NCBI GenBank assembly: GCA_002869165.1
Contig: PKTK01000013.1
Coordinates: 50,124 to 114,123, forward strand
DNA length: 64,000 nt
Origin: Candidatus Parcubacteria bacterium
Lineage (GTDB): Bacteria; Patescibacteriota; Patescibacteriia; Patescibacteriales; UBA12075
Direction: 5' to 3'
Shown here: positions 7,626-53,714 of the stretch, one piece after another
Position numbering within the stretch: the stretch's first letter is position 1
Layout: each line of letters opens with the position of its first letter
The notes under the pieces: model-generated
The model's database searches: none
Told to the model about the DNA's origin: nothing
The model's input: only the letters and a program-made list of their open reading frames with translations
Made by a program: the position numbers and the translations under genes

Positions 7626-7653
7626 AAACTGTCACGATGGTGACAGTTTTTTA
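7624..7653. terminator. Bidirectional terminator between tsaE and lspA
   Basis: ACTGTCAC-GATG-GTGACAGT is flanked by an A-run and a T-run. Confidence 0.7.
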
Positions 7654-7668
7654 AATATTTTAAAAATG

Positions 7669-8130: not shown

Positions 8131-8134
8131 TTTT

Positions 8135-8524: not shown

Positions 8525-9092
8525 ATTTTTATTTTTTTAAATAAATAAAATCAGGCCTTCCATTGTCTGAAAGTAATTATATTATATGTCAAAACCTAAT
8601 ATTTGGCAAGATAGTCAATATTTTAGGTATTATAAAAGGGCCCATTAGGCCTCCGTAATTTTTATATTATATATGAGTCCTTTAAATGAGCCCTACCTCT
8701 AAAAAATTGTTATAATATCGCTTTTTATAGCAATATCTATAAATCCCTTTTTCAGAGCTCATTTGACTATTCAACTTCTAGTCAATATTTTTTACCAATC
8801 TAGTGGTTTTTTTCAGAAATTTTTTTGTTTTTTTTATTTTCCAGAAAAAACCTTTGTTTTGTTTTTGTTTTTGATCTTTTTAAAGATTTGTATAAATTGT
8901 GTTGAATCCAATTTTACCGATCAGTAAAAAACAGAAAATTATATCAAATTTTTTGATATACTTTTCTTAATTGTGCAAAGAACATTTAACTATTATTACT
9001 ATACCATATAAATACGACTCGGTCAATCATATATTATCATTTTTTTTATACTAAAGTAAGGCAAAAATATGAACACATTTTTTATACACAAC

Positions 9093-9400
9093 TTAAGTCT
9101 ACACTAATGTAGACTTAAGTCTAAATCTTCAACAAACATATCCCCATTTTTTATGCTTTATCCACATATTAGTGTTGATAAGTCCACAATATTGTGGACT
9201 TAAATCTATTACTTATTTTAAACTGTTTAATTTTCCTCAATTTTCTTTCTATTTTAAGTCTACGCTAGCGTGGACTTAAATTAACTATTTTCTAAACAAC
9301 ATCCACGTTATATCATTAATACATTAATAAAAGGAATTGAAAGATAAAAAAACCATTATAAAATATACCCCAACTTAAGTCTATAATAGCGTGGACTTAA
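9093..9400. repeat. Cluster of four 26-bp palindromes, consensus TTAAGTCYAC-N6-GTRGACTTAA
   Basis: Copies lie at 9093-9118 (perfect), 9178-9203, 9254-9279 and 9375-9400. A fifth copy is at 36543-36568. The spacing is irregular (85, 76 and 121 bp). Confidence 0.8.
9158..9166 (+). promoter_or_regulatory. Perfect DnaA-box consensus TTATCCACA
   Basis: This is an exact 9-mer. Nearby degenerate boxes include TTATACACA (9081-9089) and AGTCCACA/TGTGGACT inside palindrome 2. Function is unproven. Confidence 0.35.
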
Positions 9401-9413
9401 ATTTTGACTTTCT

Positions 9414-9439
9414 AGATTCCTGCTTCCATAGGAATGACA
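9414..9439. repeat. Family A short hairpin unit
   Basis: AGATTCCTGCTTCCATAGGAATGACA. Confidence 0.55.
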
Positions 9440-9484
9440 AAAAAAGGAGTAAGGAATAACAGAGGTAGAAGTATTGTTTTGTGA

Positions 9485-9552
9485 AGGCGGCCACTTGCAG
9501 TGACCTACTCTACCTCACGTTCAAGAGATTCCTCGTTTCACTCGGAATGACA
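9485..9552. repeat. Family A long-form unit
   Basis: GGCGGCCACTTGCAGTGACCTACTCTACCTCACGTTCAAGAGATTCCTCGTTTCACTCGGAATGACA is collinear with 52214-52281. Confidence 0.7.
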
Positions 9553-9617
9553 AAAAAATAAGGTCTGGACCGCCCAGTCATCTGACTGGGCAAGGATTCT
9601 TACATTATTAAGTGATA

Positions 9618-9666
9618 TTTGAGGTCTGGACCGGATTCGAAGAGGCGGAAGCCTCACACCCTCAAG
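9618..9666 (-). repeat. Direct copy of the tRNA-Cys 3' end, fused to a 19-nt arm shared with the tRNA-Lys locus
   Basis: Positions 9618-9641 are identical to 9791-9814 (tRNA-Cys T-loop to 3' end plus flank). Positions 9633-9660 are the reverse complement of GGTGTGAGGCTTCCGCCTCTTCGAATCC, also found at 37532-37559 and 37710-37737. A shorter 12-nt copy is at 9561-9572. Confidence 0.8.
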
Positions 9667-9738
9667 AATTTTAATATGATCTTAAAAAATACTGTTTTAA
9701 CATTGGCATCATTTTTTTATCTATTTTTACATCTCAGG

Positions 9739-9762
9739 CACCGGTTCGAACCGATCCAGACT
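9739..9762 (+). repeat. Inverted degenerate copy of the tRNA-Cys 3' half
   Basis: CACCGGTTCGAACCGATCCAGACT compares with the tRNA sense sequence CACCGGTTCGAATCCGGTCCAGACC. Confidence 0.65.
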
Positions 9763-9786
9763 AAAAAAAGAACCCCATCTGGGGTT
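9763..9786 (-). terminator. Intrinsic terminator after tRNA-Cys
   Basis: The minus-strand sense reads AACCCC-AGAT-GGGGTT followed by CTTTTTTT. Confidence 0.7.
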
Positions 9787-9794
9787 ATTTTTTG

Positions 9795-9866
9795 AGGTCT
9801 GGACCGGATTCGAACCGGTGAATAACGGTTTTGCAAACCGTGGCCTTACCACTTGGCGACCAGACC
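9795..9866 (-). tRNA. tRNA-Cys (anticodon GCA)
   Basis: The reverse complement reads GGTCTGG..ACGGT-TTGCAAA-ACCGT..CCGGTTCGAATCCGG..CCAGACC-T. The cloverleaf is consistent. CCA is not encoded. Confidence 0.85.
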
Positions 9867-10041
9867 AGTATATTTATTTCAAAAATTTTAAATAAAAAAT
9901 TTTGAAATTTTTAACTAATTTTACTTTATAAATAATATCAGAAAGATTGATAAAAGACAAGGTTTTGATATTTTTCCTAAAATTAAAAAGGGGTCAAAAT
10001 TTGCCCCTTTTTATTTTAAAATATTTAGCCGTTATTATATT

Positions 10042-10113
10042 TGTCATTCCTGTGAGGGTAGAGATCTCATAGCCTTCTTATTTTACGAGATTCCTGCCTC
10101 CACAGAAATGACA
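10042..10113. repeat. Family A inverted-arm element
   Basis: TGTCATTCCTGTGAGGGTAGAGATCTC ... GAGATTCCTGCCTCCACAGAAATGACA. Confidence 0.6.
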
Positions 10114-10151
10114 CGAGAATGGATAAAAATTATATTTTTAAGCTTATAATT

Positions 10152-10697
10152 TTATTGATTCAATATCTCAATAGTAGCGTACTGAACACAAAAATCTATA
10201 GCATTTTCATGTGACAACAACCATACATCTACTCTGTCAGTATAACGCTTATTCATTCTATCTCTTACGACAAACACTCTATCTCCAAAAAGTTCTGGAA
10301 TACGTACCTGGGTGCCAAATTTTAGAAAATTTGCAGCAATTGTGTATTCAATGCCATGTTCACAAACATTAAAACCATTAGCTGTAATACAAGGGCTGTC
10401 GTCAGTTTGGCCTGGCTCTGAATTATATGCGGTCATAACCACATTTTTAGTCCAAGCTATATCTGATTCCTCTTCTTCGGCTATCATATTTACTGCTGTA
10501 ATATTAGCTGAAACTTCTGATTTTTGGCTATTACTAGCAAATATTTTTAAATCTGTTTTAATCATCTCTTTCATATTAACACCCTCTTTACTAAAACCAG
10601 CGTATGGAAATAATAATAATTCCATAATCATAGCCATCATAACAAATGGAATAACTGGATTTGTGATAAAACTAGATTTTTGATTTAATGTTAGCAT
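10152..10697 (-). CDS. 3D-domain (DPBB/MltA-like) cell-wall protein with an N-terminal membrane anchor
   Basis: The C-terminal half reads AYNSEPGQTDDSPCITANG...IAANFLKFGTQVRIPELFGDRVFVVRDRMNKRYTDRVDVWL. This carries the 3D-domain aspartates. Confidence 0.65.
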   Translation of the reverse strand: MLTLNQKSSFITNPVIPFVMMAMIMELLLFPYAGFSKEGVNMKEMIKTDLKIFASNSQKSEVSANITAVNMIAEEEESDIAWTKNVVMTAYNSEPGQTDDSPCITANGFNVCEHGIEYTIAANFLKFGTQVRIPELFGDRVFVVRDRMNKRYTDRVDVWLLSHENAIDFCVQYATIEILNQ

Positions 10698-10889
10698 TTT
10701 TTTAAATGTTATAATTATACTGTTATCTAATATTAGCTATTTATCTAAAAATTTTTTTGCCTTATTAAATAACATTAAATAATAACATATTTTTCTATTT
10801 TTGTCAATGGTAATACCTTTTAGTCTTTAAAAAAATAATAAACTCCTCACCTTGTGAAGAGTTTATTATTTAATTTAAAATTCTAAGGA

Positions 10890-12062
10890 CTAGTCTTCTT
10901 TTTTCTCCGTTTTTGTTTCCTCTTTTTTGGCTTTTTCTGTTTTTTCTGTTTTTTCTTCTTTTTTATCAGTTTCTTTTCCGTATGAAAGACCTAATCTGTG
11001 TTCTTTGGCCTCGATAGACACTATAGTAAATTCATATTTTTCCTTGGCTTTGAATAGATCAAATATTTTTTGACCTGGAGCTAAGTTTAGTTGAGATATA
11101 TGAGCTAAACCGTGAATATCATCATCTAAAGAAACAAATAAACCAAATGGATTTACCTTAAGCACAGTTACTTCTACTACTTGTCCAACTTTATATTTTT
11201 CTTCTACACCTGACCATGGATCTTTGATAAGATTTTTGGCTGACAAGAAAATCTTTGAATTATCAAGGTTGATAACCTCAGCTTTGATGGTATCACCAAC
11301 CTTATATAAATCATTTGGATCATCGATTCTTTGCCAAGCTAATTCAGAAATATGAATAAGGCCTTCTAAATTTTCGCCAAAGGAAATAAAAATTCCAAAA
11401 TCAGTAATTGCAGTAATATCACCTTCAACTATTGTTCCTACTTTATATTTTGAAATAATATCTTTTTGCTTTTCGTTCCATGCTTCTTTTTCAGAAAAGA
11501 TTATTTTGTCTTCTTTTTCATCAAGAGTCATAAGTCTTACGGTAAATTCTTTACCTACAAAACTTCTAAGTTTTTCTAGAATTCTACCTTTGTCACCACC
11601 ATTAATCCTAGGATAATTCTCAGGAGCTAGCTGTGAAACTGGTAAAAAGCCTGGAATTTGACGATATTTTACTAGCAAACCACCTTTATTAGCGTCCACT
11701 ACTTTAACCTTAATATTGGTTTTATTGTCTCTAGCATCAAATAAACCTTGCCAAGCACGTTCTTGGCCAGCAAATTTAAATGATAGCTCTAATTCACCGT
11801 TTTCATTTTCACCTTCGATTACTGTAGCTTCAACTTCGTCACCTGGTTTTAAATTTGCGTAATCATCATCTTCTTCATATAATTCTGGGCCTCTAACAAC
11901 ACCTGTTAGAACTCCATCAATATCAAGCTTTACTTCAGCTTTTGAAGCAGTAATAACCTTACCTTTTACTAATTCGCCAATTTGGGGAACTTGAAAGTCC
12001 CAATCATCAAGCATTTTATTAAACTCATCATGAGCTTTTGTTTGTTTTTTTTCTTCTGACAT
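10890..12062 (-). CDS. rpsA: 30S ribosomal protein S1 (four S1 domains, K/E-rich tail)
   Basis: Repeated S1 OB motifs are present: GELVKGKVI.., VEGDITAITDFGIFISF.., GQVVEVTVLKVNPFGLFVSL... Confidence 0.8.
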   Translation of the reverse strand: MSEEKKQTKAHDEFNKMLDDWDFQVPQIGELVKGKVITASKAEVKLDIDGVLTGVVRGPELYEEDDDYANLKPGDEVEATVIEGENENGELELSFKFAGQERAWQGLFDARDNKTNIKVKVVDANKGGLLVKYRQIPGFLPVSQLAPENYPRINGGDKGRILEKLRSFVGKEFTVRLMTLDEKEDKIIFSEKEAWNEKQKDIISKYKVGTIVEGDITAITDFGIFISFGENLEGLIHISELAWQRIDDPNDLYKVGDTIKAEVINLDNSKIFLSAKNLIKDPWSGVEEKYKVGQVVEVTVLKVNPFGLFVSLDDDIHGLAHISQLNLAPGQKIFDLFKAKEKYEFTIVSIEAKEHRLGLSYGKETDKKEEKTEKTEKAKKEETKTEKKED

Positions 12063-18581: not shown

Positions 18582-21293
18582 TTATTTTGCAAAAAAATTA
18601 TCATCTTCTTCTGAATCGCGTGCGAGCGATTCATCCGCCGCACCGGAGGTGCTTTGGGCGGAATCATCAACCTCCTCGTCATCATCGTCTTCCTCTTCAT
18701 TTTCTTCCTCTTCGTCTTCATCTTCTTCATCTTCATTTTCTTCTTCATCTTCATTTTCCTCATCTTCATCGTATTCTTCATCCTCATCTTCTTCATCATC
18801 TTCATCATTTTCTTCTTCGTCTTCATCATCAGAATCTTCTTCTTCGTTGTCATCTTCTTCATCTTCATTTTCATCTTCATCTTCATTTTCCTCATCTTCA
18901 TCGTATTCTTCATCCTCATCTTCTTCATCATCTTCACTACCTTTTAATACTGGAGGTGAATCAGCTTCTTCGCCTAGATAGTTTTCTCTTGGTTCTTCTT
19001 CGTTCATATTATGCATTGCCACTCCACTAACTCCTTGAGCCTCTAGACCAACTAATTGTTCTTTGGTAATCAAAATATCTCTTGCTTTTGATCCATTAGC
19101 AGGTCCTATCACGCCAGCTTCTTCAAGTTGATCCATAATGCTTGCTGCCCGAGCATAACCAATTCGCAATTTTCTTTGCAAAAATGAAGTAGAGGCTTTG
19201 CCCATGTTTACAACAATCTCTCTAGCCTCACCAAGTAAATCATCTCCTCCATCATCTCCGCCACTATCAAGTCCAGCGCCCCCTATACCACTTACTTTTT
19301 GTGAATCAGTAATTCCACCTAGATACTCTATAGTATCTGCGCTTTTCTTAATATAGCTATTTATTTTTTTTATTTCAAGTTCTGACAAGAATGCCCCTTG
19401 TAGTCTGACTGGTTTGGATATTTCGGCTGTTTGAAAAAGCATATCACCTCTACCTAGTAATTTTTCCGCTCCCAGGGTATCCAAAATCGTTCTAGAGTCA
19501 GTGCTTGAAGCTACTGAGAAAGCAATCCTAGCTGGCATATTGGCCTTGATAAGACCGGTAATTACATCCACCGAAGGACGCTGAGTTGCTAGTATCAAGT
19601 GGATGCCAACCGCCCGAGCCATTTGTGCTAATCTAATAACTGAGGCTTCAATCTCCTTGGAAGCTGCTACCATCAAGTCAGCAAGCTCATCAATAATAAA
19701 CACCAAATATGGCATATTAATTTCGTGTGACTCATTATAAGTTTGAATGTTCTTATTTCCACTTTGTTTAAGCACTTCATAGCGCCTATCCATTTCATTT
19801 AGACACCATTTAAGAGCATTGATGGTTTTCTTTACATCAGTTATCACTGGCGTCAATAGATATGGCGAACCATCATAGGGAGTTAGCTCAACCCGCTTTG
19901 GATCAACCATAATAAAGCGTAAATTATCAGGATTGTTCTGATACATCAAAGAAATAATAATTGTATTTAAACAAACTGATTTACCAGAATTAGTTGCTCC
20001 TGCCACAAGCAAATGAGGCATGCGAGTGATATCAGCCAACCATGATTTGCCAGCTACATCCTTTCCTAAAGCAAGCATTGTATTTTCTTTTCTTTCTTTG
20101 TAAGTTTTGGAATTCAAAATTTCTCTAAGACCTACCATAGCCTTGGTTTGATTGGGAACTTCAACCCCCACCAAAGGCTTGCCAGGAATCGGGGCTTCAA
20201 TTCTAATTGGATGAGCTGCTAGAGCAAGAGCTAAATCATTGCTTAGATTAGTAATCTTTGACAACTTAACTCCCTGCGCTGGCCTAAAAGTATATTGTGT
20301 AACTGTTGGACCTACTGCAATTTCTCCCATTTCCACAGGAATATGAAAATCCTCCAAAGTTCTTCGAATAATTTCTTTGTTTTCTTTGATATCTCCACTG
20401 GTTGGCTTACCTTTCTTGCCATTTAGAAGTTTCATGGGTATATCAATTTCAACTCCAGTTGGTTCCATCCACCAAATAGGCTCAGCTTGAGGAACTACTG
20501 GTTTAAGTGGAGCTGGAGCTGGTCTTGGTTTTTCTTCCTCTTCCTCTTCCTCCTCCTCTTCTTCTTCCTCTTCCTCCTCTTCTTCTTCATCTTCTTCGTC
20601 TTCTTCCTCGTCTTCCTCTTCACCTTCTTCGCCTTCCTCCTCTTCTTCTTCCTCATCCTCATCTTCCTCTTCATCTTCCTCTTCATCTTCTTCTTCCTCA
20701 TCTTCTTTATCTAATCTGAATATTTTTGCAATTAAAAAATGAAATGGATAAAAAAGTTTTCCAATAAATGATTCTTGGCCAATAAGATTTTTAAGCGAAG
20801 TGTCAAATATTATCAAAAATGACATAAGAACAAGGCCAAGAGAAATAAAAAATGAAGCAATAAAACCAAGCCAATCAATAAACAAGGCTGCCAACCAAAA
20901 ACCAAGACTTCCTCCTCCTCGTCCTTCTACCACTGCCATACTCCAAGTATTTCTGTCAATCAATAAAGAAAAGAATAAATGAACAGAAACAATAAAAAGA
21001 ATCATACCAAAATATGATGATCTGCGAATTTCAAATCGCTCATCATCATAAAGCATATAGCCCCAGATAATGAAAACAACTGGCAAAATAAATCTACCCC
21101 AACCAAATGACCACAACATAAAGTGATTGATATAAACACCTGATTTTCCCGCCATATTAAAAAGTCCCAAAAAAGAAATTAACCCAAATGCAAATACTAG
21201 CAATATAAAAATTCCTTTTTTTGTCTCTTCATCAAGATCAATACTAGGTATGGTAAAAAATCTTAATAAACCTCGTTTTTTTCGTCTGGCCAT
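18582..21293 (-). CDS. ftsK: DNA translocase FtsK/SpoIIIE with poly-acidic linker and tail
   Basis: Has N-terminal TM helices, the Walker A GATNSGKSV, IDELADLM, and the gamma winged helix SFLQRKLRIGYARAASIMDQLEEAGVIGP. There are two long D/E tracts. Confidence 0.9.
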   Translation of the reverse strand: MARRKKRGLLRFFTIPSIDLDEETKKGIFILLVFAFGLISFLGLFNMAGKSGVYINHFMLWSFGWGRFILPVVFIIWGYMLYDDERFEIRRSSYFGMILFIVSVHLFFSLLIDRNTWSMAVVEGRGGGSLGFWLAALFIDWLGFIASFFISLGLVLMSFLIIFDTSLKNLIGQESFIGKLFYPFHFLIAKIFRLDKEDEEEEDEEEDEEEDEDEEEEEEEGEEGEEEDEEEDEEDEEEEEEEEEEEEEEEEEEEKPRPAPAPLKPVVPQAEPIWWMEPTGVEIDIPMKLLNGKKGKPTSGDIKENKEIIRRTLEDFHIPVEMGEIAVGPTVTQYTFRPAQGVKLSKITNLSNDLALALAAHPIRIEAPIPGKPLVGVEVPNQTKAMVGLREILNSKTYKERKENTMLALGKDVAGKSWLADITRMPHLLVAGATNSGKSVCLNTIIISLMYQNNPDNLRFIMVDPKRVELTPYDGSPYLLTPVITDVKKTINALKWCLNEMDRRYEVLKQSGNKNIQTYNESHEINMPYLVFIIDELADLMVAASKEIEASVIRLAQMARAVGIHLILATQRPSVDVITGLIKANMPARIAFSVASSTDSRTILDTLGAEKLLGRGDMLFQTAEISKPVRLQGAFLSELEIKKINSYIKKSADTIEYLGGITDSQKVSGIGGAGLDSGGDDGGDDLLGEAREIVVNMGKASTSFLQRKLRIGYARAASIMDQLEEAGVIGPANGSKARDILITKEQLVGLEAQGVSGVAMHNMNEEEPRENYLGEEADSPPVLKGSEDDEEDEDEEYDEDEENEDEDENEDEEDDNEEEDSDDEDEEENDEDDEEDEDEEYDEDEENEDEEENEDEEDEDEEEENEEEDDDDEEVDDSAQSTSGAADESLARDSEEDDNFFAK

Positions 21294-22989: not shown

Positions 22990-24543
22990 TTAATACGTAT
23001 AAGTTGCTATTATTTCATCACTTGGATTTAATAAATATGCTTCATCACCTGAATTGTTCCAAATCGCCGAGTAAGTATGACACCAATACAGCTCTTGGCT
23101 AGTATCCTCTCCACAGCCAGTAAATACTTTAAAAGACTCTCCTGAAGCAATACCAAAATCATCAAATACATACGACTTGCCACTTCCATCTCTAATTTCA
23201 TAATCATCCATACTCAAAGCCTCACCATTGTTTTGTATCTCTATATATTCATCCTCCTCTTTATCACTAGCTACCCCATCATAAAATATATTTACAATTT
23301 CAAGTTCTGACGAACTACTTGCCTTCACCAAACTATTCATTCCACCAAATTCCAAGCAAGCACCATCTGCCCATATACCTTTTTTGTTTTCCTTGGCCCG
23401 AGCTTCGGCTAATTTGTAAATCCCCGCATATTTACTAGCTACATTATAAGTATACTCGTTAGCATATCCTTCTTCTATCATAAGCTCAGCAAAATTTTTC
23501 CCATTAGGCATTATTACGTGCCTGAGAAGTCTGTCGTATTTATCTAAATTTCCTTGTGTTTCATCAAACTCAAGTTCTACATAAGTTCCTTCTAATATTG
23601 TCTTGGCGTATTCACTGGCTTCTTCACCAAAGCACTCTTCTGCTCGATATGAACTCATCACCTCTGGTGTATCCATACCTATTACCCTTACACTAGTCTT
23701 CTTACCATTTTCATAAACCAAAAAGGTGTCACCATCAACCACATAGTCAACATAGTACATTCTATTCTCTATAACTGGCTCTACAATATCCTTAGCTCCC
23801 TTTTGTGACTCAAGAAGATCAATAATTTTTACTCCTGTGGTATCAGCTGTTCCAAAACCCGTGATAGTCTCTCCGCCTATCACTGTGAAGGGCACACCTC
23901 GTATTTCTATACCATAAACTTCTTTAAATTTTTCCAAAATATCTCTATTAGCCTCATCATACCATGTCTCCATCATTACGACTTCGATATCATCTCTAGC
24001 AAGCACCAATTCATCCAAAAAGGCTATTTCATTATGACAATGCGGACAACCAGAACCGTAAAACAAATATAGTTTTTGTTTATCGTTATCAATTATTCGC
24101 TCCTCGCTCACTTGATAACTTGAGTTCATAACTATTTCAGAAAGATCACTTGTTCTGATACCAAGCCCCAGATCACGCATAACCTGAAAGGCATCCACTG
24201 GTTTTCCTAGATAATGCAAATGCAAGTCAAGCGGATTTATATAATAGGCCTCCCCAGAGGCTTCTACTCGCAAAACTATTCTTCCCGATAAACTAGCAGG
24301 AGCAATCATTTTCCAGGAAGAAAAATCCTTTTCATTTACCCCAAGCCCAAGCTCTCGCATTATCCTAAAAGCATCTTGAGGTCGAGACAAAAATATCCTC
24401 TCCTTGGTACTAGGCTCAACATACCATGCTTGCCCTTCGTCCTCAACTTGCAAAAGTATCCGTCCAGCCAAGCGTTCTCCCATATCCTGGGCTAAAACAG
24501 GTAAAGCAAAAAATATAAAAATAAATATTAATACTTTTTTCAT
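22990..24543 (-). CDS. Secreted multidomain protein: tandem N-terminal repeats, thioredoxin-like CPHC domain, staphylococcal-nuclease (SNase) domain, lamin-tail domain
   Basis: Has a signal peptide, then YGSGCPHCHNE. The SNase motif is VVDGDTFLV...VRVIGMDTPE. The lamin-tail-domain motif is EDEYIEIQNNGEALSMDDYEIRDG. Confidence 0.75.
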   Translation of the reverse strand: MKKVLIFIFIFFALPVLAQDMGERLAGRILLQVEDEGQAWYVEPSTKERIFLSRPQDAFRIMRELGLGVNEKDFSSWKMIAPASLSGRIVLRVEASGEAYYINPLDLHLHYLGKPVDAFQVMRDLGLGIRTSDLSEIVMNSSYQVSEERIIDNDKQKLYLFYGSGCPHCHNEIAFLDELVLARDDIEVVMMETWYDEANRDILEKFKEVYGIEIRGVPFTVIGGETITGFGTADTTGVKIIDLLESQKGAKDIVEPVIENRMYYVDYVVDGDTFLVYENGKKTSVRVIGMDTPEVMSSYRAEECFGEEASEYAKTILEGTYVELEFDETQGNLDKYDRLLRHVIMPNGKNFAELMIEEGYANEYTYNVASKYAGIYKLAEARAKENKKGIWADGACLEFGGMNSLVKASSSSELEIVNIFYDGVASDKEEDEYIEIQNNGEALSMDDYEIRDGSGKSYVFDDFGIASGESFKVFTGCGEDTSQELYWCHTYSAIWNNSGDEAYLLNPSDEIIATYTY

Positions 24544-24572
24544 AAATAAATTTATTTACTAACTATTATTTA

Positions 24573-27500
24573 TTATACATTCTTAAAAAATAAAAATCTA
24601 ATTAAATAAATAAAAGCTACTAAAAATATTACCCCCACGATAATCAAACCATAAATTTTCAACCTATTGTCTTTTCTTTTTTTAAGTGTCCATTCTTTTT
24701 TTTCAATACTTTCACCAAGCACTTGTCCTTCATTATCGCCTCGCTCAATTAATTCTATTTCATTTTCATTTCTTAGTTGCAAACGTCTGCCTGAACTAGA
24801 ATTCTGCACTATTCCTCTAGCCAGAACTCTATCTCCCAAAGAAAAAGAAGACAAAAAATCGTTACTAGCATTTTTTAAATACACTTGTGTTTCGCCACTT
24901 TCATCACCCAAATATACTTTATCAGTTTGAATATCAATGATTTCTGCTTCTACCTGTGCCAAGCTTGCTTCTTGAATTTTGTCAATTTCCGAACAATTAC
25001 ATTTTTGAGTCTTTAACTCCAATCCATTTTTTATTACTTGAATATTACTTGCTTCCTTGGTTTTGACCCGCAACTCGCTACCTGTTTTAGACACTTCTCC
25101 ATTCACCTCTATCAAATCTCCAATTTCCAAATCTGGAAAATCTTTGTAATAACTATAAATTTGCAAACCAAGAGAGTCATCAGATATATAAAAATATTGA
25201 CTAGACAATTCTCCAGGCAGAGAGCTTACTATTCCTTGAATAGCTATTTTTTTTGATAAATATTCTTGATTTAAATCCTTAATATTTATATTATTTTTCA
25301 GTTCAAACTGACTTGTACCTTGTGCCAAAAAAACACTTCCTCCTTTTTTTTCTGAAACAGATGAATCAACAAGAATTTTATTCAAATTACTAGGACCATA
25401 GACTTCCCCCTCTTTGGTTTTTCCATATTCTTGAAAATCTATCACTTCACCGTTTGGGGCAATTAGCCTGACCTCATCATCAAAATTATTAAGTGCTATA
25501 CCAGAATCCTCTCGACTAAGATTGTAATATTCACCCGCCTTCAAAAAAACATTATCGGTAAACTTGTATGGCCTTGAACCTCCTTCCATATCATCCACAC
25601 TCCAATTCAAAAGATTAATATCATTTTCACTACTATTAAAAAGTTTGATATATTCTCCTTCTTGGTCACTGCCAACTGGATTAGGCAAGAATTCATCAAT
25701 CTTAATATCAGAAAAATCTATTTGCAGATCAGCGCTAGTTGCTTGACTCAAGTCTAAACTCCAATCAAAAACAACCAGTTCTTTTTCAATTTGTTTATCA
25801 AATTCACCATCATTTACAACCAAAGTGACTAAATATTTTCCTGATTTGCCGAAAATATGATCAGGATTGGGAAATTCAGAATAAAAACCATCATCAAAAT
25901 CCCAGAAATATTTAAGTTCGTCCTGATCAGGATCAATCGTATCACTACTATCAAAAATAACTGGCATGCCAACGAATAAATTCTCAACTACTGAAAAATC
26001 AGGAATTGGTTCTCGATTGGGTAATTCTATCTCATTTGTTTCACCTGGTGTCAAATTCGTACTCCAACTACAATCAAGATTAGGCAACACCCCCAAAAGC
26101 TCTAAATCTTTAGTCAAGCAATTCAGACTCATCCCCTCACTTGAATTTTTGTAATTCAAACTATCAATTGCCTTTTTTTTATCGATCTGAAACAAATAAA
26201 CCGTATCACCAGAATTATTCAAAGCTAAATTCGTCTCATCTTTAAAAAAAACTAAATAATCATGTGAATCAATATAAAGATACCTCTCAATTCTATAATT
26301 ATACTCACTCTCATCACCAAGTTGCCAACCATAAAGGTTGATTGCTTCTTCGCTTCTGTTATAAAGCTCAATATATTCTCTATCTGCATCCACTCCATCT
26401 GGATCAGGATATATCTCGCTTATAAATATAGCATTTTTTATATCTGCACTTGTTTTTAACTCATCTTCGCTAATAACATTACTTTTACCCTTGGTCACCT
26501 GACTGGTAACACAAAAATCAACTGAATCATTGCCAGTATTTCTGCCATCTTCTATACGAGCCAAAGAAAATGGATCCTTGGCTACAATTGCATTGTCACT
26601 AGGGTCCTCATCGCTCCAATCTCCATAACACAAAGAGTCAATATATACTCCACTTGAATCACGAAGAATAACAATATCCCCGGTGTTATTTAAATTTCCT
26701 TTTAGTTTTTCAATAACCAAAAACCTTTCACTCCCACTTCTACCAATAGTTCCTGTAAGGGATGTTTTGGCTCCACTTCCTTCTTCCAAAAACCAACCAC
26801 TCAAATCTATATCCTCTATACTTGTATTAAAAAGCTCGACCCATTCATTCTCACCATCGATCGGGTCGCTTACAATTTCGTTTATTACTACAATCCCAGA
26901 AAAATTTATTTCTTCATCACTCGATTTTATTTTGGTATTTTCTCCATTCTCCTCCCTAACAACTTGGTTGTCTGTACTAGTGGCCTCGTTTTCCTCACTC
27001 TGCTCCAAGTCATTACTAGAGTTATCTTCTTCTTGATTACTTTCATTGTTTGAATTATTAATAATATTTTCTTGACCTGGTGTGCCACCAACATCATCAC
27101 TGGTCACCCAAACACCACCAGAATTTAAAGACATTGTTTGTTTGGTGTCATTGTCTCCAGATGACCACGCGGTGCTAGCATTTATTTCATCAATTATCTC
27201 CCCTGAAGAATTTTTTAAAATTAAATACTCTCCGGTGTTGCCCAAAGCACCGGTATAGATTAACTGGGCCTCAACATCATCTACGCTAAAATCATCTGTT
27301 CGCTCAAGTAAATAATATGAATTGACATCAACAAAACCACTTAACTCAATTTCTGGGCTTCCGTCTTGCGCTACTAGCGTCAACCCGCTTAGATCAATAA
27401 CAACTGAGCCAGGGTTATATAGTTCTATCCATTCATCAGAACTTGAATACTCTGTACCCATCCAGGCAATCTCATTTATTCGTAATGAATCAGAGTTAGC

Positions 27501-27596
27501 CTGAACTATAGCCCCAAAATAAAAAATTCCTGAGATTAAAACCCCAAGAATCATGAATAATTTAATAAAATCAATGTTTCCTCCTTGTTTGTTCAT
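24573..27596 (-). CDS. Large surface protein with four lamin-tail domains, a PKD domain, OB-fold-like modules and a C-terminal TM anchor
   Basis: The lamin-tail motif recurs four times: INEI..DEWIELYN, NEWVELFN, REYIELYN and GEYIKLFN. The PKD motif is YFWDFDDG...GKYLVTLVVNDG. The C-terminal helix is IYGLIIVGVIFLVAFIYLI. Confidence 0.7.
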   Translation of the reverse strand: MNKQGGNIDFIKLFMILGVLISGIFYFGAIVQANSDSLRINEIAWMGTEYSSSDEWIELYNPGSVVIDLSGLTLVAQDGSPEIELSGFVDVNSYYLLERTDDFSVDDVEAQLIYTGALGNTGEYLILKNSSGEIIDEINASTAWSSGDNDTKQTMSLNSGGVWVTSDDVGGTPGQENIINNSNNESNQEEDNSSNDLEQSEENEATSTDNQVVREENGENTKIKSSDEEINFSGIVVINEIVSDPIDGENEWVELFNTSIEDIDLSGWFLEEGSGAKTSLTGTIGRSGSERFLVIEKLKGNLNNTGDIVILRDSSGVYIDSLCYGDWSDEDPSDNAIVAKDPFSLARIEDGRNTGNDSVDFCVTSQVTKGKSNVISEDELKTSADIKNAIFISEIYPDPDGVDADREYIELYNRSEEAINLYGWQLGDESEYNYRIERYLYIDSHDYLVFFKDETNLALNNSGDTVYLFQIDKKKAIDSLNYKNSSEGMSLNCLTKDLELLGVLPNLDCSWSTNLTPGETNEIELPNREPIPDFSVVENLFVGMPVIFDSSDTIDPDQDELKYFWDFDDGFYSEFPNPDHIFGKSGKYLVTLVVNDGEFDKQIEKELVVFDWSLDLSQATSADLQIDFSDIKIDEFLPNPVGSDQEGEYIKLFNSSENDINLLNWSVDDMEGGSRPYKFTDNVFLKAGEYYNLSREDSGIALNNFDDEVRLIAPNGEVIDFQEYGKTKEGEVYGPSNLNKILVDSSVSEKKGGSVFLAQGTSQFELKNNINIKDLNQEYLSKKIAIQGIVSSLPGELSSQYFYISDDSLGLQIYSYYKDFPDLEIGDLIEVNGEVSKTGSELRVKTKEASNIQVIKNGLELKTQKCNCSEIDKIQEASLAQVEAEIIDIQTDKVYLGDESGETQVYLKNASNDFLSSFSLGDRVLARGIVQNSSSGRRLQLRNENEIELIERGDNEGQVLGESIEKKEWTLKKRKDNRLKIYGLIIVGVIFLVAFIYLIRFLFFKNV

Positions 27597-27869
27597 TATT
27601 TTTTTAATTTATTTTTTATGTTTCTTTAATATTATCATTTTTTTATATCTATTTCAATTATTGTTTATCAAGAACATAAATAAAAAACATTTGAATTTTA
27701 TTAATATTATTTTAATATAATTATTATAAGATACAAACCATATATAATAAAATATTTTACCAAACAACTATTGACAAATTAAAAAAATTAATGTAAGGTA
27801 TTTTATTGTCCGCTCTTTTATAACTTAATCAAGCGAAAAATTGCTATTATTAAACAAAAAGGGGATGTA

Positions 27870-28328
27870 ATGGAAAGAGGAAATAAGCGTTCTAATCTAT
27901 TATTTTTGCTTTTATTGTTATTTTTGTTCTGCTTTTCCGGTTGTGCTACCCCCACGGGGTTAAGATACAACTATGGTATCTTTGCGGTTGATCAGACCAT
28001 TAGCGACAGCGATGGTAATGTATACGATATTTATGATGACATCAAGGTGCCAAAGGATAAAAAATGGTTGTCATTGAATTTAGCTGTACACAACCCTGAT
28101 AATCTAAGATTGTTCATTGTAATTCATGATTATGATGGGGAAAAAATTAGCAAAAAGCCTTTGTGGAATGTGGAAGCATTCCAGGAAAAGCCTAAAAGTT
28201 CGGTTGTCAAATTTAGTTTTAGCTGTCCTGATAGAGGATACAAAAACACCTTGATAACCGAGATAGTTAATGATGAGGGGGAAACTTTGAAAGAATTATT
28301 CCCTATAACCTATCAATTTACTAACTGA
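27870..28328 (+). CDS. Lipoprotein, unknown function
   Basis: The signal peptide carries the lipobox CFSGC. A TTGACA-17-TAAGGT promoter and a GGGG Shine-Dalgarno sequence lie upstream. Confidence 0.55.
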   Translation: MERGNKRSNLLFLLLLLFLFCFSGCATPTGLRYNYGIFAVDQTISDSDGNVYDIYDDIKVPKDKKWLSLNLAVHNPDNLRLFIVIHDYDGEKISKKPLWNVEAFQEKPKSSVVKFSFSCPDRGYKNTLITEIVNDEGETLKELFPITYQFTN

Positions 28329-28404
28329 TAGAAAGTGGAGGTCAATGCTATCATTGCAGACACAAAAAAAACAAAAAACAAAAAAAGAAGAAAGGAGGCT
28401 TTAA

Positions 28405-29307
28405 ATGAAAAGTAAGATTCTTGCAATTTTTGGTGCACTTCTGCTCACTTCTGGATCAGCTTTTGCAACAGGTGGACCCGGTGGATGTAATGGTTGTCAG
28501 GATGACTTCGCATTTGTCCAGGTCGGTCAGGATCAGGTTCAGACTTATGACGGCATTTCCTTTGGAACTCCAATGGGTGGGTTAACCATTCATGGTGGAA
28601 TGCAGGCCCAGGAAAACAGTGGTATAGCGTTCAACGGGAATGGTGCAGCCTATCAATCCGAAGAGCAGGGACATGAATATGGCGGATCAGCTTACTCGCC
28701 ATTTGCATTTTCCGAACAAACCGGTAGCAGCCTCATGACTGCCGATAACTTCGGAACAGTTAATAACTGCGGCTCATTTACCTCGAATGCCGAGCAGCTC
28801 TATGATGCAAAAATCGAAAATTTCAACACGATAAACTTTACAGCTTCCGGAATCAAAGAAGGCTTCGGCCAGAACATTTCCGGTTTTGCTACTCCTGGCG
28901 CCGAAGTCGGCAACAGCCTTGGGCTGAATTCCTATAATTCATATTCATCCGGTTCTTATTTTGGCAATGACTATGTCTACAACGATGGCATGGCTTATAC
29001 CAATTCCTATCTCAACGGTGAAGTTGCCAACAGAGGCATGGGAATGTACGAAGGATCGATTTCCGGTTTCCAGGAAGGCAATACAATGACTGCTCAGGAT
29101 GGAAATGGTACTTTCCAGATGGCCGGTCAAACTGCCATAGCTGAACTCAGTCTGGATGCTTGCGCCATGGGGAGAGCCCACATAGAAGGTGGCGCCGATA
29201 TGTTCCAGGGTTACGGATATGAACAGTACAACCAGGGCAAAAACGGCTTCCAGTATCAAACTGGCTCAGTCTCAACCCAGGTGGAAGTAAGCACACACAT
29301 TCACTGA
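28405..29307 (+). CDS. Secreted G/N/Q/S/Y-rich protein, unknown function
   Basis: An AGGAGG Shine-Dalgarno sequence precedes it. The signal peptide ends AFA-TG. The composition is low-complexity and rich in G, N, Q and Y. The DNA is about 50% G+C in the sampled stretch. Confidence 0.55.
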   Translation: MKSKILAIFGALLLTSGSAFATGGPGGCNGCQDDFAFVQVGQDQVQTYDGISFGTPMGGLTIHGGMQAQENSGIAFNGNGAAYQSEEQGHEYGGSAYSPFAFSEQTGSSLMTADNFGTVNNCGSFTSNAEQLYDAKIENFNTINFTASGIKEGFGQNISGFATPGAEVGNSLGLNSYNSYSSGSYFGNDYVYNDGMAYTNSYLNGEVANRGMGMYEGSISGFQEGNTMTAQDGNGTFQMAGQTAIAELSLDACAMGRAHIEGGADMFQGYGYEQYNQGKNGFQYQTGSVSTQVEVSTHIH

Positions 29308-29382
29308 TATTTCAAAATGTTTCGGGGCTCTACCAATCCTGGTAGAGCCCATATATAACCTACCAAAAAGGAGAGAAAAACT

Positions 29383-30249
29383 ATGAAGTATCTCAACACC
29401 CTGTTAGCATTATTCGCAATTTTACTTTTTACAGGAACTGCATTTGCTGGTGATATCTCCAACAATGTTGGTGCTAAATCTGATGCTAGCCAGGGCCAAA
29501 GTCAAGGCCAGACCAGCATGAATGTAAATGCCCCATCGCAAAGCACCTACGTCGACAACAAACCGACATTCGTTCAGTCTTTCGTATCCAAAGGCTCACC
29601 AACCCACCATATTCCAGCTGATATAACCTTTCCTGGTATGGTTGGAAACCTGACTTCCGGAAACGATAAAGGACCGAACTTCACCAGCATGTACGATCTG
29701 CTCAAATACAAATCAGTCGAAGTTGGTGGACCAGCAACTTTTACCCGTGAAGAACTCGAAAACATCGCTGAAGATGCCGAGAACTGGCTCGGAAATGATC
29801 CAGGGCTGGAAGCAAGGTACTATGGAGGGCAAAAACGTGAAGCCGTAGACGAAATCACTGTTCTCTTTTCCCCCACCATTATTGCAAAAACCAAAGACGG
29901 TCGTGTAAACGTATTCGTCGGCAAAAAACTTCCAGGCATGAAAGTCGCCGGCCAAATCCATTCCAGTGCTTGGGATGAGGATATTGTTTCACTTGACGTT
30001 CTAGCAGTTGCTTTGATCGATGCCATGAATAATGGTTGTAACGCAGCAGACGTTACCACTGAAGACGTAGTTGATGTTCTCAAAGTTGGGAGCTGGGGTC
30101 TCGGTTTTAACATGAGCGCAGCAAGTGCAACCATGGACTCTGGTCACAGTGCAATTTCCAGCGCAGGTGGCGGTGGAACAGGCGTTTCAGAAAATGAAGC
30201 CTATCATGCAAAGAAACCTTATCTGCAAATGGCCGTTGGAGTCAAATAA
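29383..30249 (+). CDS. Secreted protein, unknown function
   Basis: An AGGAG Shine-Dalgarno sequence precedes it. The signal peptide ends AFA-GD. The DNA is about 50% G+C. A terminator follows. Confidence 0.55.
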   Translation: MKYLNTLLALFAILLFTGTAFAGDISNNVGAKSDASQGQSQGQTSMNVNAPSQSTYVDNKPTFVQSFVSKGSPTHHIPADITFPGMVGNLTSGNDKGPNFTSMYDLLKYKSVEVGGPATFTREELENIAEDAENWLGNDPGLEARYYGGQKREAVDEITVLFSPTIIAKTKDGRVNVFVGKKLPGMKVAGQIHSSAWDEDIVSLDVLAVALIDAMNNGCNAADVTTEDVVDVLKVGSWGLGFNMSAASATMDSGHSAISSAGGGGTGVSENEAYHAKKPYLQMAVGVK

Positions 30250-30298
30250 ATAAATTTCGCATAATAATTTTAAAAGAAGTAGCCAATCACTACTTTCC

Positions 30299-30329
30299 AA
30301 GAGGTAACAAACAGTTACCTCTTTTTTAT
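30299..30329 (+). terminator. Intrinsic terminator
   Basis: AGAGGTAAC-AAACA-GTTACCTCT followed by T6. Confidence 0.75.
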
Positions 30330-30392
30330 TTTCCCTTGAAAAAATAAACAATCTCCTTTAATATAATAATAAACAATAACAAAGGAGAGAAA

Positions 30393-31189: not shown

Positions 31190-31498
31190 CTACTTAATTG
31201 TTGCTTCAACCAAAGAATTCAAGACAAAATTGGCAATAGAATAAGAAGACAGAACTATTATTAGACCAGTCACTGCATTTACAAGTGTTTTTTTAGCCTT
31301 GGTGACTTTCACTACATTACCAGCCGATGTCATCCATACAAAACCGGCATAAATCACCAAACATAAGAAAATTATACCAAGTAAAGACAAAACAACCGCA
31401 ATCAAACCACCTACTATAGCTCCAATTCCTTGAGGTTCACCAAACCCAGCCACTCTGGCGGTTTGCTCTAACATTTCCATTATTAAACTTGTATCCAT
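31190..31498 (-). CDS. TrbC/VirB2-like small pilin-family membrane protein
   Basis: A two-TM hairpin with IYAGFVWMTSAGN..KVTKAKKTLVNAVTGLIIVLSSYSI. This is the pattern of the small type IV secretion pilin-like family common in Patescibacteria. It starts 2 nt after the smc stop codon. Confidence 0.5.
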   Translation of the reverse strand: MDTSLIMEMLEQTARVAGFGEPQGIGAIVGGLIAVVLSLLGIIFLCLVIYAGFVWMTSAGNVVKVTKAKKTLVNAVTGLIIVLSSYSIANFVLNSLVEATIK

Positions 31499-37061: not shown

Positions 37062-37135
37062 GTATCTGTAGCTCAATTGGATAGAGCACTTGGCTTCGGA
37101 CCAAGGGGTTGTGGGTTCGAGTCCTACCAGATACA
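37062..37135 (+). tRNA. tRNA-Arg (anticodon TCG)
   Basis: GTATCTG..GCTC-AATTGGATA-GAGC-A-CTTGG-CTTCGGA-CCAAG..GTGGG-TTCGAGT-CCTAC-CAGATAC-A. Confidence 0.85.
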
Positions 37136-37163
37136 CAAGTTTTTATACTTAAAATTCATAAAA

Positions 37164-37237
37164 GGCTGGGTAGCTCAGATGGTTAGAGCGCGGCACTCAT
37201 AACGCCGAGGTCGAGAGTTCAATCCTCTCCCCAGCCA
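37164..37237 (+). tRNA. tRNA with CAT anticodon (elongator Met, or Ile2 if lysidine-modified)
   Basis: GGCTGGG..GCTC..GAGC-G-CGGCA-CTCATAA-CGCCG-AGGTC-GAGAG-TTCAATC-CTCTC-CCCAGCC-A. It lacks initiator features (positions 1:72 are paired, and there is no GGG/CCC in the anticodon stem). Confidence 0.75.
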
Positions 37238-37318
37238 CATACTTAATTCGGATTTTTGATTGTGGATTGCGGAGCTACAAATTCCGAATTCCAAAATCAG
37301 AAGTCCGAATTTTGATAA

Positions 37319-37391
37319 GCGCCCATAGCTCAGTTGGTAGAGCAGTTGCCTCTTAAGCAAATGGTCGCAGGTTCGAATCCTGCTGGGCGCA
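37319..37391 (+). tRNA. tRNA-Lys (anticodon CTT)
   Basis: GCGCCCA..GCTC-AGTTGGTA-GAGC-A-GTTGC-CTCTTAA-GCAAA-TGGTC-GCAGG-TTCGAAT-CCTGC-TGGGCGC-A. Confidence 0.85.
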
Positions 37392-37785
37392 CAAAATAAA
37401 GCGCCGCCTGAATAGGGCGGTGTTTTATTTTGTGTGACTAGCAGATGAGAACCTGCTCTGAGGTGCAGGGGAAGAATAAAAGACAAGCTATTTGCAAAAA
37501 TATTATCAAAAACTAAACATGTTATTTTGATGGTGTGAGGCTTCCGCCTCTTCGAATCCTGCTGGGCGCACAAAATAAAAGACGTCTCGAAGAGGCGTTT
37601 TTTGTTTTGTGTGACTAGCAGATGAGAACCTGCTCTGAGGTACAGGGGAAGAATAAAAGACAAGTTATTTGCAAAAATATTATCAAAAAACTAAACATGT
37701 TATTTTGATGGTGTGAGGCTTCCGCCTCTTCGAATCCTGCTGGGCGCACAAAATAAAAGACGTCTCGAAGAGGCGTTTTTTGTAT
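37372..37785 (+). repeat. Tandem array of about 179-bp units, each beginning with the tRNA-Lys T-loop-to-3'-end segment (att-like)
   Basis: TTCGAATCCTGCTGGGCGCACAAAATAAA occurs at 37372, 37551 and 37729. The two intervening units are near-identical and end in GGTGTGAGGCTTCCGCCTC. Confidence 0.85.
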
Positions 37786-37799
37786 TTAAAAAAATTTTG

Positions 37800-37838
37800 C
37801 AAAAAAAAAGAAGGGCCGTACATTTTTGTACGACCCTT
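37800..37838 (-). terminator. Strong intrinsic terminator (minus strand)
   Basis: The minus-strand sense reads AGGGTCGTACA-AAAA-TGTACGGCCCT followed by TCTTTTTTTTT. Confidence 0.8.
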
Positions 37839-38408
37839 GCACCAGTTATGTTTTATGTTAGAGTCAGAGCATTTTACCTCCATTTTTCTGGGCAGATTCC
37901 AGGCGCTTTTCGTTTGGCCTGGATTGGATTTATGACATTTTTCTATGACCGCTGCAATGACCTCGTCTTATCGCGGCTCCCTGCTCCAATACCTCTATGG
38001 GTATGGGGGGGAGCAAGCGCATCATTTTTGACGTTCCAGTTCATCGCAGTACTTCCGAAATGGTGCCGAATTTACTTATCGACCGGTGACTTGAGATTTT
38101 CAAAGTTTTTAGATGGTCAGTCGCATCTGTTCTCCTCTTTCGCCGGAAGAATTGTGCCAGAGCAATTCGTTGCTCCCGAGCACAGGAATGAAAGATTACC
38201 GGGACTATCCAAGGTGCTGTATGGAGCAGTTCCATGACAGCGGGCTTAATCCAGTTCTTCTTCAGGTATTGTCTGCTTAAATCTTTACGGCGGGTCTTTG
38301 TTTGGCACGATTGCCTCTTTGTTGAGGTTAAGGTTTTTTGCGGTTTCTTTAAATGTACTTACATCTTTTTCTTATCGCGGCCCTCTTGGCCTGCATCGAT
38401 GCATAATT
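37803..38408 (-). ncRNA. Candidate large (about 600 nt) structured non-coding RNA of unknown class
   Basis: It is bounded by a canonical promoter and terminator. Two hand-counted 60-nt samples gave 45-52% G+C, against about 22% in a flanking sample. All frames are broken and no Shine-Dalgarno-led ORF exists. There are several 5-9-bp local hairpins. The class is not identifiable by eye. Confidence 0.45.
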
Positions 38409-53705: not shown

Positions 53706-53714
53706 AGGTAAGAT

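Follow-up and report, generated by a model that had tools for sequence, protein, structure and literature searches.

A probably mobile three-gene cassette for predicted exported proteins in a Parcubacteria genome and in huge phages

How did a GC-rich islet of three genes come to lie in an AT-rich bacterial genome, and what might its products do? The islet is located in a 64,000-nt stretch of contig PKTK01000013.1 of a Candidatus Parcubacteria bacterium (hereafter the window), which has a mean G+C content of 0.34. Its three genes encode a lipoprotein and two secreted proteins, P2 and P3. A first-pass annotation made from the sequence had described positions 27870-30249 as a compositionally foreign islet that suggested horizontally acquired surface or adhesion functions. 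The results below indicate that the three genes are very probably a mobile conserved cassette which was acquired here, and they lead to a model of an exported envelope system that is weighed against four alternatives.

Base composition and codon use of the islet

The 1-kb G+C profile reached the window maximum at positions 29001-30000 (0.465) and showed 0.414 at 28001-29000. In 200-nt windows the G+C content was 0.45-0.515 from 28400 to 30200, compared to 0.12-0.21 in the upstream spacer (27600-27900) and 0.22-0.30 after position 30250. Overall, bases 28400-30250 had 46-48% G+C and formed the GC peak of the window. The P2 gene had a G+C content of 0.475 and a G+C content at third codon positions (GC3) of 0.455, and the P3 gene had 0.463 and 0.408, respectively, while the genes of the window had a mean GC3 of 0.276 with a standard deviation of 0.066. 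The lipoprotein gene had an ordinary G+C content (0.355) with a raised GC3 (0.379). Because its bulk composition is ordinary, the GC-rich part begins near 28400 rather than at 27870. The GC-rich islet of the first-pass annotation therefore holds for the P2 and P3 genes but not for the lipoprotein gene, and the housekeeping background of approximately 25% that had been read from a sample of fhs was too low, with the whole fhs gene showing 37% G+C.

Every gene was then recoded with the window's own synonymous codon frequencies, giving the G+C content expected from the amino acids alone. The amino-acid sequence alone predicted 0.41 G+C for P2 and P3 against a mean of 0.333 for the other genes, and therefore approximately 55-60% of the GC excess is explained by the amino-acid composition of these Gly/Ala-rich proteins. 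The locus is a clean example of amino-acid composition making up over half of a "GC island". The remaining excess was synonymous, with GC residuals of z +3.9 (P2) and +3.1 (P3) and GC3 residuals of z +4.2 (P2), +3.1 (P3) and +2.9 (lipoprotein gene). After amino-acid correction, the base and codon composition of the islet thus still deviated from the host background, and the sliding-window GC and codon-usage check that had been proposed as a test of an acquired islet showed a deviation, with a raised GC3 in all three genes. The fraction of C-ending codons for Phe, Tyr, Asn, His, Asp and Ile was 0.41-0.48 in the islet versus 0.15-0.29 in neighbouring genes, and the P2 gene used CAG 18 times versus CAA 4 times. 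Expression-linked codon bias was rejected as the cause of the raised GC3 because the highly expressed gene for ribosomal protein S1 deviates in the opposite direction (GC3 z -1.8); fhs was average.

Linkage and occurrence of the three genes

Locus contexts were scanned with hidden Markov models (HMMs) built from alignments of the module's own proteins. In 21 of 21 distinct loci with enough upstream sequence, the strand that encodes P3 also carried a match to the lipoprotein HMM, 0.55-2.6 kb before P3, and all loci without a lipoprotein match are truncated within approximately 1.4 kb of P3. The gene order of lipoprotein, signal-peptide Gly-rich protein(s) and P3 was also kept in all 21 loci with enough flank. 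Each locus had at least one signal-peptide protein between the lipoprotein and P3 genes, and in 20 of the 21 it was Gly-rich (13-22% Gly), with a combined Gly, Ala, Ser, Asn and Thr content of approximately 50-65% and a Lys plus Arg content of 1-7%. In the remaining locus (L016) the middle protein had a signal peptide but only 7% Gly. Phage versions often had two or three middle genes, and the cassette of phage L017 includes a genuine 8-stranded outer-membrane protein (OMP) barrel (PF13505, E 4.9e-19). The module proteins of the window, L001 and L002 align at 24-47% identity. Overall, the three genes are conserved and strictly linked, which places the module among the more strictly linked small modules definable from metagenomes. 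No description of the module family was found in the literature and, judged by sequence, the three proteins represent three undescribed families.

Six cellular contigs carried the module, each with a different neighbourhood. The neighbours were SMC, a T4SS-pilin-like protein and an LTD/PKD surface protein in the window; sigma-70, a flavodoxin-like protein and DUF5652 in L001; TatD and ATP synthase in L004; ECF sigma, CBS, ArsB and L25 in L005; and RuvX in L022; those on L002, a 3.1-kb contig, were uninformative. Three of the six (the window, L001 and L004) are Parcubacteria or Patescibacteria according to their source records. The module was also present on predicted viral contigs of 11 to 223 kb from IMG/VR and on a phage-like contig of 248 kb (L011) that encodes a baseplate spike, PAAR, Amidase_2 and a split phage-type RNA polymerase. 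Further contigs with the module showed small same-strand open reading frames (ORFs) and amidoligase, GGACT and CCA-adding genes, and PHROGs matches adjoining the module included UvsX, a DnaB-type helicase, SSB and a moron glycosyltransferase. By tblastn, the P3 domain was absent from GenBank phages and from PLSDB plasmids, and the only matches were to the OmpA_C part of a fusion protein described below. Patescibacteria-specific peptide patterns returned no new loci from genome, metagenome and viral collections, and PADLOC models showed no match with six module proteins at E ≤ 0.1. This distribution suggests a cassette in circulation among huge phages and further cellular contigs, of which several are Patescibacteria, and the module thereby connects two poorly understood groups, the huge phages and the Candidate Phyla Radiation bacteria.

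Two of the cellular copies showed irregularities. Contig L002 starts with a near-perfect inverted repeat of approximately 130 nt (positions 1-130), possibly an assembly artefact or the hairpin end of a linear element. In L004 (7033-7915) two overlapping ORFs in different frames take the place of a single P2 gene, one of 106 aa that includes the signal peptide and one of 230 aa; the cause is a frameshift (pseudogene) or else an error in sequencing.

Evidence for horizontal acquisition

Horizontal acquisition, as the first-pass annotation had suggested, is well supported overall by four lines of evidence: the synonymous codon residuals, the absence of the module from relatives, the differing contexts of the six cellular copies and the occurrence in phages. 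The relatives compared have SMC proteins 62-69% identical to that of the window. One of them, L020, is the nearest relative collinear with the window (SMC-SNase-FtsK-LactB; FtsK 70.5% and LactB 73% identical) and is without the module; its SMC-SNase interval is approximately 1 kb compared to approximately 9 kb in the window, where the interval holds the pilin-like gene, orf108, the islet and a gene for a 1007-aa LTD protein. The module was also missing in L019 and L021, so the survey of relatives that had been proposed found it in none of these three.

Among the phages, the huge phages L011 and L018 have flanks that are 58-62% identical (VgrG-like, PAAR, amidase, PfkB and a 467-aa protein) and carry the cassette at the same site (7329-10921 and 7825-10591, respectively). 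However, their lipoproteins are just 31% and their P3 proteins 28% identical, and P2 similarity was undetectable, which points to cassette exchange or very fast evolution at this site. The module was a GC3 outlier in the window, L004, L005, L013 and L018, and most extremely in L011 (0.66 versus a background of 0.22, z about +12), but it matched the background in L007, L012, L014 and L017, with the backgrounds of L007 and L012 at approximately 43-45% G+C. In the window, the islet is neighboured by the LTD/PKD protein, an SNase-LTD protein, the T4SS-pilin-like protein and SMC, and the nearest tRNAs are at 37062-37392. An assembly chimera is unlikely as identical proteins were found on two contigs and both flanks came from the same genome.

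Organisation and expression signals

The features of the locus are listed in Table 1. All three genes have strong Shine-Dalgarno sequences (AGGGGA, AAGGAGG and AGGAGA in gene order), and the lipobox of gene 1, the AFA signal-peptidase I sites of P2 and P3 and a terminator-like hairpin at the end of the cluster were all found, in line with the first description. The claim of an own promoter fared less well, since the consensus scan upstream on the + strand gave no match and did not report the candidate in Table 1, which was recognised by eye.

Table 1. Features of the three-gene locus (window coordinates).
Feature	Position	Strand	Details
Candidate promoter	27771..27799	+	Perfect -35 TTGACA (27771-27776), 17-nt spacer, weak -10 TAAGGT (27794-27799) preceded by TG; read by eye
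Gene 1, lipoprotein, 152 aa	27870..28328	+	ORF; signal peptide, lipobox FSGC
Gene 2 (P2), secreted protein, 300 aa	28405..29307	+	ORF; AFA signal-peptidase site after residue 21
Intercistronic stem-loop	29325..29350	+	GGGCUCUACCA-AUCC-UGGUAGAGCCC; between P2 and P3 genes, no U-run after it
Gene 3 (P3), secreted protein, 288 aa	29383..30249	+	ORF; signal peptide 1-22 (AFA)
P3 distal hairpin segment, residues 235-271	30085..30195	+	Uncharged, Gly-rich; column statistics over 134 sequences
Intrinsic-terminator-like hairpin with T-run	30299..30333	+	10-pair stem (30299-30323), then TTTTATTTTC; ends operon

The intergenic segment between the P2 and P3 genes folds at -23.6 kcal/mol (z -3.9). Strong hairpins (z -4.1 to -5.3) occupy the same position in L001, L002, L007 and L018, and L005 has a weaker one there; the stem-loop sequences differ between loci while the position is conserved. 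Elements of this kind are known from operons that encode abundant structural subunits, where they reduce read-through or make the upstream message more stable. By this analogy, the stem-loop after the P2 gene hints that P2 may be needed in excess over P3.

Lipoprotein and P2

The lipobox of the lipoprotein (LFCFSGC, Cys25) is followed by an all-beta-looking domain of approximately 125 aa with a conserved N-P motif. Among 12 family members from cellular and phage loci, Cys25, N75 and P120 were invariant. With its signal peptide, lipobox and invariant Cys, the gene 1 product has the attributes of a bacterial lipoprotein and is predicted to be lipidated. No match was found in Pfam, NCBIfam, PHROGs, PADLOC or PDB. 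The lipoprotein of L007 showed weak PHROG matches with an Rz-like spanin (E 0.024) and Cor (E 0.063), in the N-terminal signal-peptide/lipobox region only.

P2 is composed of 16.7% Gly, 9.3% Ser, 9.0% Ala, 8.0% Asn, 7.3% Gln and 5.7% Tyr and is poor in Lys and Arg. The G/N/Q/S/Y-rich composition described in the first-pass annotation was therefore confirmed, but not a generic low complexity: orthologues in L001 and L002 are 37-40% identical, and P2 belongs to a conserved and ordered family. BLAST tied it to L005, L004 and phage L017, with patchy links to the phage versions, and P2 is the most variable component of the module. An hhalign self-match of residues 35-206 with 124-298 (probability 60%, E 8e-5) showed a weak threefold repeat of approximately 90 aa. 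Comparison with E. coli CsgA by hhalign gave a probability of 6% with the signal peptide alone aligned, no match was found in Pfam at E ≤ 1 or in NCBIfam, and a word-indexed search found no homologue beyond P2 itself. The suggested amyloid or adhesive fibre nature was not upheld, as P2 has no similarity with CsgA or Pfam amyloid families and its repeats are weak and long, not short as in curlin.

Family and predicted fold of P3

P3 consists of a Gln/Gly-rich linker (residues ~23-72, with 24-72 disordered in the model), an alpha/beta domain (~95-220) and a C-terminal beta-hairpin (221-287). A word-indexed search found two homologues, each located behind a lipoprotein gene and a Gly/Asn/Gln-rich gene, and an exhaustive profile search extended the family to 222 representative clusters at E ≤ 1e-3 (66 at E ≤ 1e-10). 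A Pfam scan of 53 family members showed no domain, and P3 itself had no Pfam match at E ≤ 1 and gave no family match in NCBIfam, PHROGs or PADLOC. PDB sequence and profile searches with P2, P3 and the lipoprotein gave signal-peptide matches and one weak lead only, to YdgH (4evu): a strand-helix-strand of P3 (G-x-I-T-V...S...A-x-x-A-L-x-x-A-x-x-x-G-A-N...I-T) aligned with this member of the YdgH/BhsA/McbA (DUF1471) group, but over approximately 44 residues and at a non-significant E of 0.17, which makes it a lead and not a classification.

AlphaFold2 was run on P3 with a 134-sequence alignment and gave a model with a mean predicted local distance difference test (pLDDT) score of 79.4; a three-sequence alignment gave only 34. 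The two hairpin strands (221-249 and 259-287) are 29 residues each, with pLDDT 90-97 at the base and 54-82 in the distal part. The distal hairpin has the consensus G-W-G-I-G-F-N-T-T-G-A-T-I, a polar turn and S-G-V-G-S-G-G-T-G-Y-S-S-G, and a P-W-x-Q motif closes the hairpin. Over the 134 sequences, the charged fraction was approximately 0 at columns 235-250 and 259-271 and Gly was present in 88-98% at 237, 239, 241, 265 and 267, with alternating positions occupied by Trp (77% at 238), Ile/Val/Leu (240) and Phe/Leu (242). In addition, QxQxQ occurred near the N-terminus in 50 of the 134 sequences versus 6.6 expected, and was also seen in several P2 proteins. The homology and structure checks that had been proposed thus returned a large family and a predicted fold, with no known-family match.

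The uncharged Gly/Trp/Ile/Phe hairpin tip suggests an oligomeric beta-barrel, since such a pattern would be sensible only in an assembly of several copies, for example a barrel, that shields the hydrophobic face. The predicted hairpin is a candidate for the long, amphipathic and uncharged hairpin expected of a barrel former: columns 235-271 are uncharged and Gly-rich with a Trp/Ile/Phe face, but the distal confidence is reduced and the hydrophobic belt is short. That P3 forms a barrel is accordingly put forward tentatively, with somewhat less than an even chance of being correct. Should P3 prove to be a new barrel former of the hairpin type, the few known building plans of oligomeric beta-barrel channels and toxins would be joined by another.

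Foldseek comparison of the P3 model with PDB and BFVD found nothing significant (best E 0.02). Along the hairpin, PDB alignments were obtained with pore-forming toxins only (CytK, LukGH, alpha-hemolysin, Epx4 and aerolysin), and none of these was significant (E 0.2-0.5, probability ≤0.12). FvfA (5evg) was considered as a fold match (probability 0.93, E 0.3) and was not used, as it covered part of the alpha/beta domain only.

One homologue, P0119 of Draconibacterium, has a P3 domain followed by the peptidoglycan-binding OmpA_C (PF00691, E 1.3e-16). The P3 module here replaces the N-terminal membrane anchor of OmpA-family proteins, so that in this diderm the P3 part would take the membrane-anchor position with its C-terminus beside peptidoglycan. 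However, P3 of the window is without OmpA_C, and the P3 module differs from the 8-stranded barrel of OmpA. A further subset of homologues (for example P0055 at L011 10001-10921, P0036, P0065, P0094 and P0102) has a C-terminal extension past P-W-x-Q that ends in a conserved Q-T-G-N-H.

Proposed model of the cassette

The favoured model, to which a probability of about 45% is given, describes the islet as a mobile, Sec-exported three-gene envelope cassette in which P3 forms a hairpin barrel or ring, the lipoprotein serves as tether or pilot, and P2 is an abundant, fast-evolving exposed cargo or coat. All three products would cross the cytoplasmic membrane via Sec. The gene 1 product would be lipid-anchored and would tether or pilot the assembly. 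P3 would be the conserved core, whose protomers pool their uncharged Gly/Trp/Ile/Phe hairpins into a beta-barrel ring or envelope pore. P2 would be made in excess over P3 through the stem-loop between both genes and, as the fast-evolving exposed partner, would be exported, anchored or displayed by the P3 ring as a surface coat or fibre. Oligomerisation and membrane insertion of P3 and the roles of P2 and the lipoprotein are inferred. Support for an exported envelope or surface function comes from the targeting signals (a lipoprotein plus two proteins with signal peptides) and from the OmpA-domain fusion homologue; of the surface or adhesion functions first suggested, this part stands, while an adhesin role is not supported.

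The cassette can be compared with known systems on sequence and model grounds. It resembles curli in its logic and alpha-hemolysin-type toxins in the predicted hairpin, but fails the family tests for both, and it seems to behave like a phage moron. As with the phage morons (the lambda lipoprotein Bor and OMP Lom, T5 Llp and Cor), it is a small phage accessory cassette for exported lipoproteins or OMPs (L017 holds an OMP barrel) that differs in composition from the phage backbone and is exchanged among related phages. It has no PHROGs homology to these morons and, unlike them, combines three fixed components around a conserved core family of 222 clusters.

A wider claim is that the cassette represents an undescribed class of Sec-dependent envelope machine, in which single-hairpin P3 protomers build a beta-barrel ring together with a dedicated lipoprotein and an exported partner that is hypervariable, and which is traded between huge phages and Patescibacteria and used at the parasite-host interface. 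Patescibacteria are thought to be episymbionts, and both they and huge phages are parasites of other cells. This claim is speculative and judged unlikely as a whole; if it were true, the use at the interface would be, for example, as a pore or conduit into the host envelope, or as a variable surface cloak. A true P3 barrel would provide a testable candidate for envelope alteration by ultrasmall episymbionts or phage-infected cells.

Several observations weigh against the favoured model and the acquisition it includes. Patescibacteria are generally considered to have no outer membrane, and this leaves P3 without an obvious target membrane in this organism, which is the main weakness. The distal P3 hairpin has moderate confidence only, its hydrophobic face is short (approximately four residues per strand) with a second strand of mostly Gly/Ser, and the Foldseek search found no significant match among known channels and toxins. 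With regard to acquisition, no integrase, transposase, tRNA or flanking direct repeats were found in the flanks of the islet, where a search for repeats and inverted repeats gave chance AT-rich matches only. The relatives in which the module is absent are only distantly related, and those lineages may have lost it. Finally, orthologues that are just 37-47% identical keep the raised G+C content in several hosts, which could reflect selection on composition and not recent transfer.

Alternative explanations

The first alternative is a pore-forming toxin with immunity, in which P3 would enter the membrane of another cell (the host of the episymbiont or a competitor of the phage host), the lipoprotein would protect the producer and P2 would be a second component or targeting factor. 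P3 has a Sec signal, a soluble-looking alpha/beta head in the model and a single Gly-rich, uncharged hairpin per protomer with alternating hydrophobic residues, which resembles the glycine-rich stem of alpha-hemolysin-type toxins. These toxins and the leukocidins are likewise Sec-secreted and include the phage-borne Panton-Valentine leukocidin, pore-forming toxins carried by phages being known. The restriction of hairpin alignments to pore-forming toxins, although non-significant, points the same way, and cassette swapping and fast evolution would fit conflict genes. However, none of the 53 P3 members matched the Leukocidin, aerolysin or MACPF families of Pfam, and the head is predicted to be alpha/beta and not the beta-sandwich with rim of these toxins. 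P3 also always occurs with a lipoprotein and a Gly-rich partner, and this explanation gives no role to the ever-present P2 or to the stem-loop after its gene. The OmpA_C fusion, which adds a peptidoglycan-binding domain, better suits a resident envelope protein than a released toxin. Overall, the toxin explanation is considered unlikely.

A curli-like functional amyloid or adhesive fibre, in which P2 polymerises outside the cell, P3 secretes or nucleates it and the lipoprotein has an accessory part, is considered quite improbable. The parallel with curli (type VIII secretion, with the channel lipoprotein CsgG, the subunits CsgA and CsgB and the accessory proteins CsgE and CsgF) is that all parts are Sec-exported and one is a lipoprotein, that an alpha/beta protomer would pool its beta-hairpins into an oligomeric barrel, and that an abundant Gly/Asn/Gln/Ser-rich secreted beta-protein with internal repeats is predicted for P2; taken together, the lipoprotein, the hairpin-bearing alpha/beta protein and the secreted Gly/Asn/Gln-rich protein recall the set of CsgG, CsgA and the curli accessory proteins. 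The Tyr content and the Lys/Arg-poor composition of P2, its predicted excess production and the frequency of QxQxQ in P3 and P2 would also fit. In contrast to curli, the cassette has no Pfam match with Curlin_rpt (PF07012), CsgG (PF03783), Fap or TasA, and P2 has no similarity with CsgA past the signal peptide. The lipoprotein and the hairpin protein are separate genes, whereas CsgG is itself a channel lipoprotein, and P3 has one hairpin per protomer and not two. The repeats of P2 are weak units of approximately 90 aa instead of strand-loop-strand units of 19-23 aa, and the hosts of the cassette are phages and Patescibacteria. In addition, known amyloid subunits are comparatively well conserved, but P2 is the least conserved component and cannot be detected as similar between related phages.

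The three genes could also be native, with a high G+C content that results from Gly/Ala-rich proteins and from selection on codons or mRNA in individual genes for abundant envelope proteins, and a patchy distribution that results from repeated loss. The 55-60% share of amino-acid composition in the GC excess and the absence of flanking mobility genes or repeats agree with this, as does the same GC pattern (lipoprotein gene low, P2 gene highest) in the orthologues of L001, L004 and L005, where amelioration would be expected after so long a divergence. Against it stand the synonymous deviation of z +3 to +4, opposite to that of the highly expressed S1 gene; the missing module in three relatives, one of them collinear; a different context for every cellular copy; phage genomes that carry the module with matched composition in four cases and an extreme mismatch in L011; and cassettes that diverge at a fixed site in related phages. 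A native origin is considered very unlikely.

Least probable of all is a phage accessory left from a degraded prophage (one that would remodel or block the envelope of an infected cell, so as to exclude superinfection or to aid lysis, and that would survive here as a remnant of no use to the bacterium), since the proximity of the cassette in L011 and L018 to genes for Amidase_2 and the baseplate and in L014 and L017 to early/replication genes and morons, the weak N-terminal spanin and Cor matches of the L007 lipoprotein and the well-known receptor-blocking lipoproteins of phages are set against a window with no other phage gene near the islet, three intact ORFs with signals, Shine-Dalgarno sequences and terminator, a position beside lysis genes that is not conserved across phages, and at least four other cellular loci with all three ORFs intact (P2 split in L004), which argue for selection in cellular hosts.

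Neighbouring features

On the - strand beside the islet (22990-27596), a 1007-aa protein with four LTD domains, PKD and an OB fold is encoded next to a 517-aa SNase-LTD protein, and by their domains these two look like an extracellular nuclease or DNA-binding pair. In L020 the SNase gene encodes just 188 aa and the 1007-aa gene is missing, which marks the entire interval from SMC to FtsK as variable. Directly downstream of SMC, a 102-aa T4SS-pilin-like gene was found on the - strand at 31190-31498 (PF18895, E 3.4e-5, below the Pfam cut-off). The SMC-pilin pair is kept in L021 (57% identity) and accompanies the cassette only in the window.

Two other segments of the window, 37400-38300 and 53646-54167, were GC-elevated (approximately 0.45 and 0.38, respectively) with GC3-type residuals of z +3.4 to +5. 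Their longest ORFs gave implausible proteins without a Pfam match, and no Rfam match was found at E ≤ 0.1. The first segment adjoins the downstream end of the tRNA-Arg/Met/Lys cluster at 37062-37392. Both segments may be unannotated structured RNAs. Finally, the Parcubacteria-like L021 (SMC 62% identical) showed a match at 20509-21117 with PagL (PF09411, E 7e-13), a beta-barrel lipid A deacylase of the outer membrane, which is unexpected for a lineage thought to be without an outer membrane.

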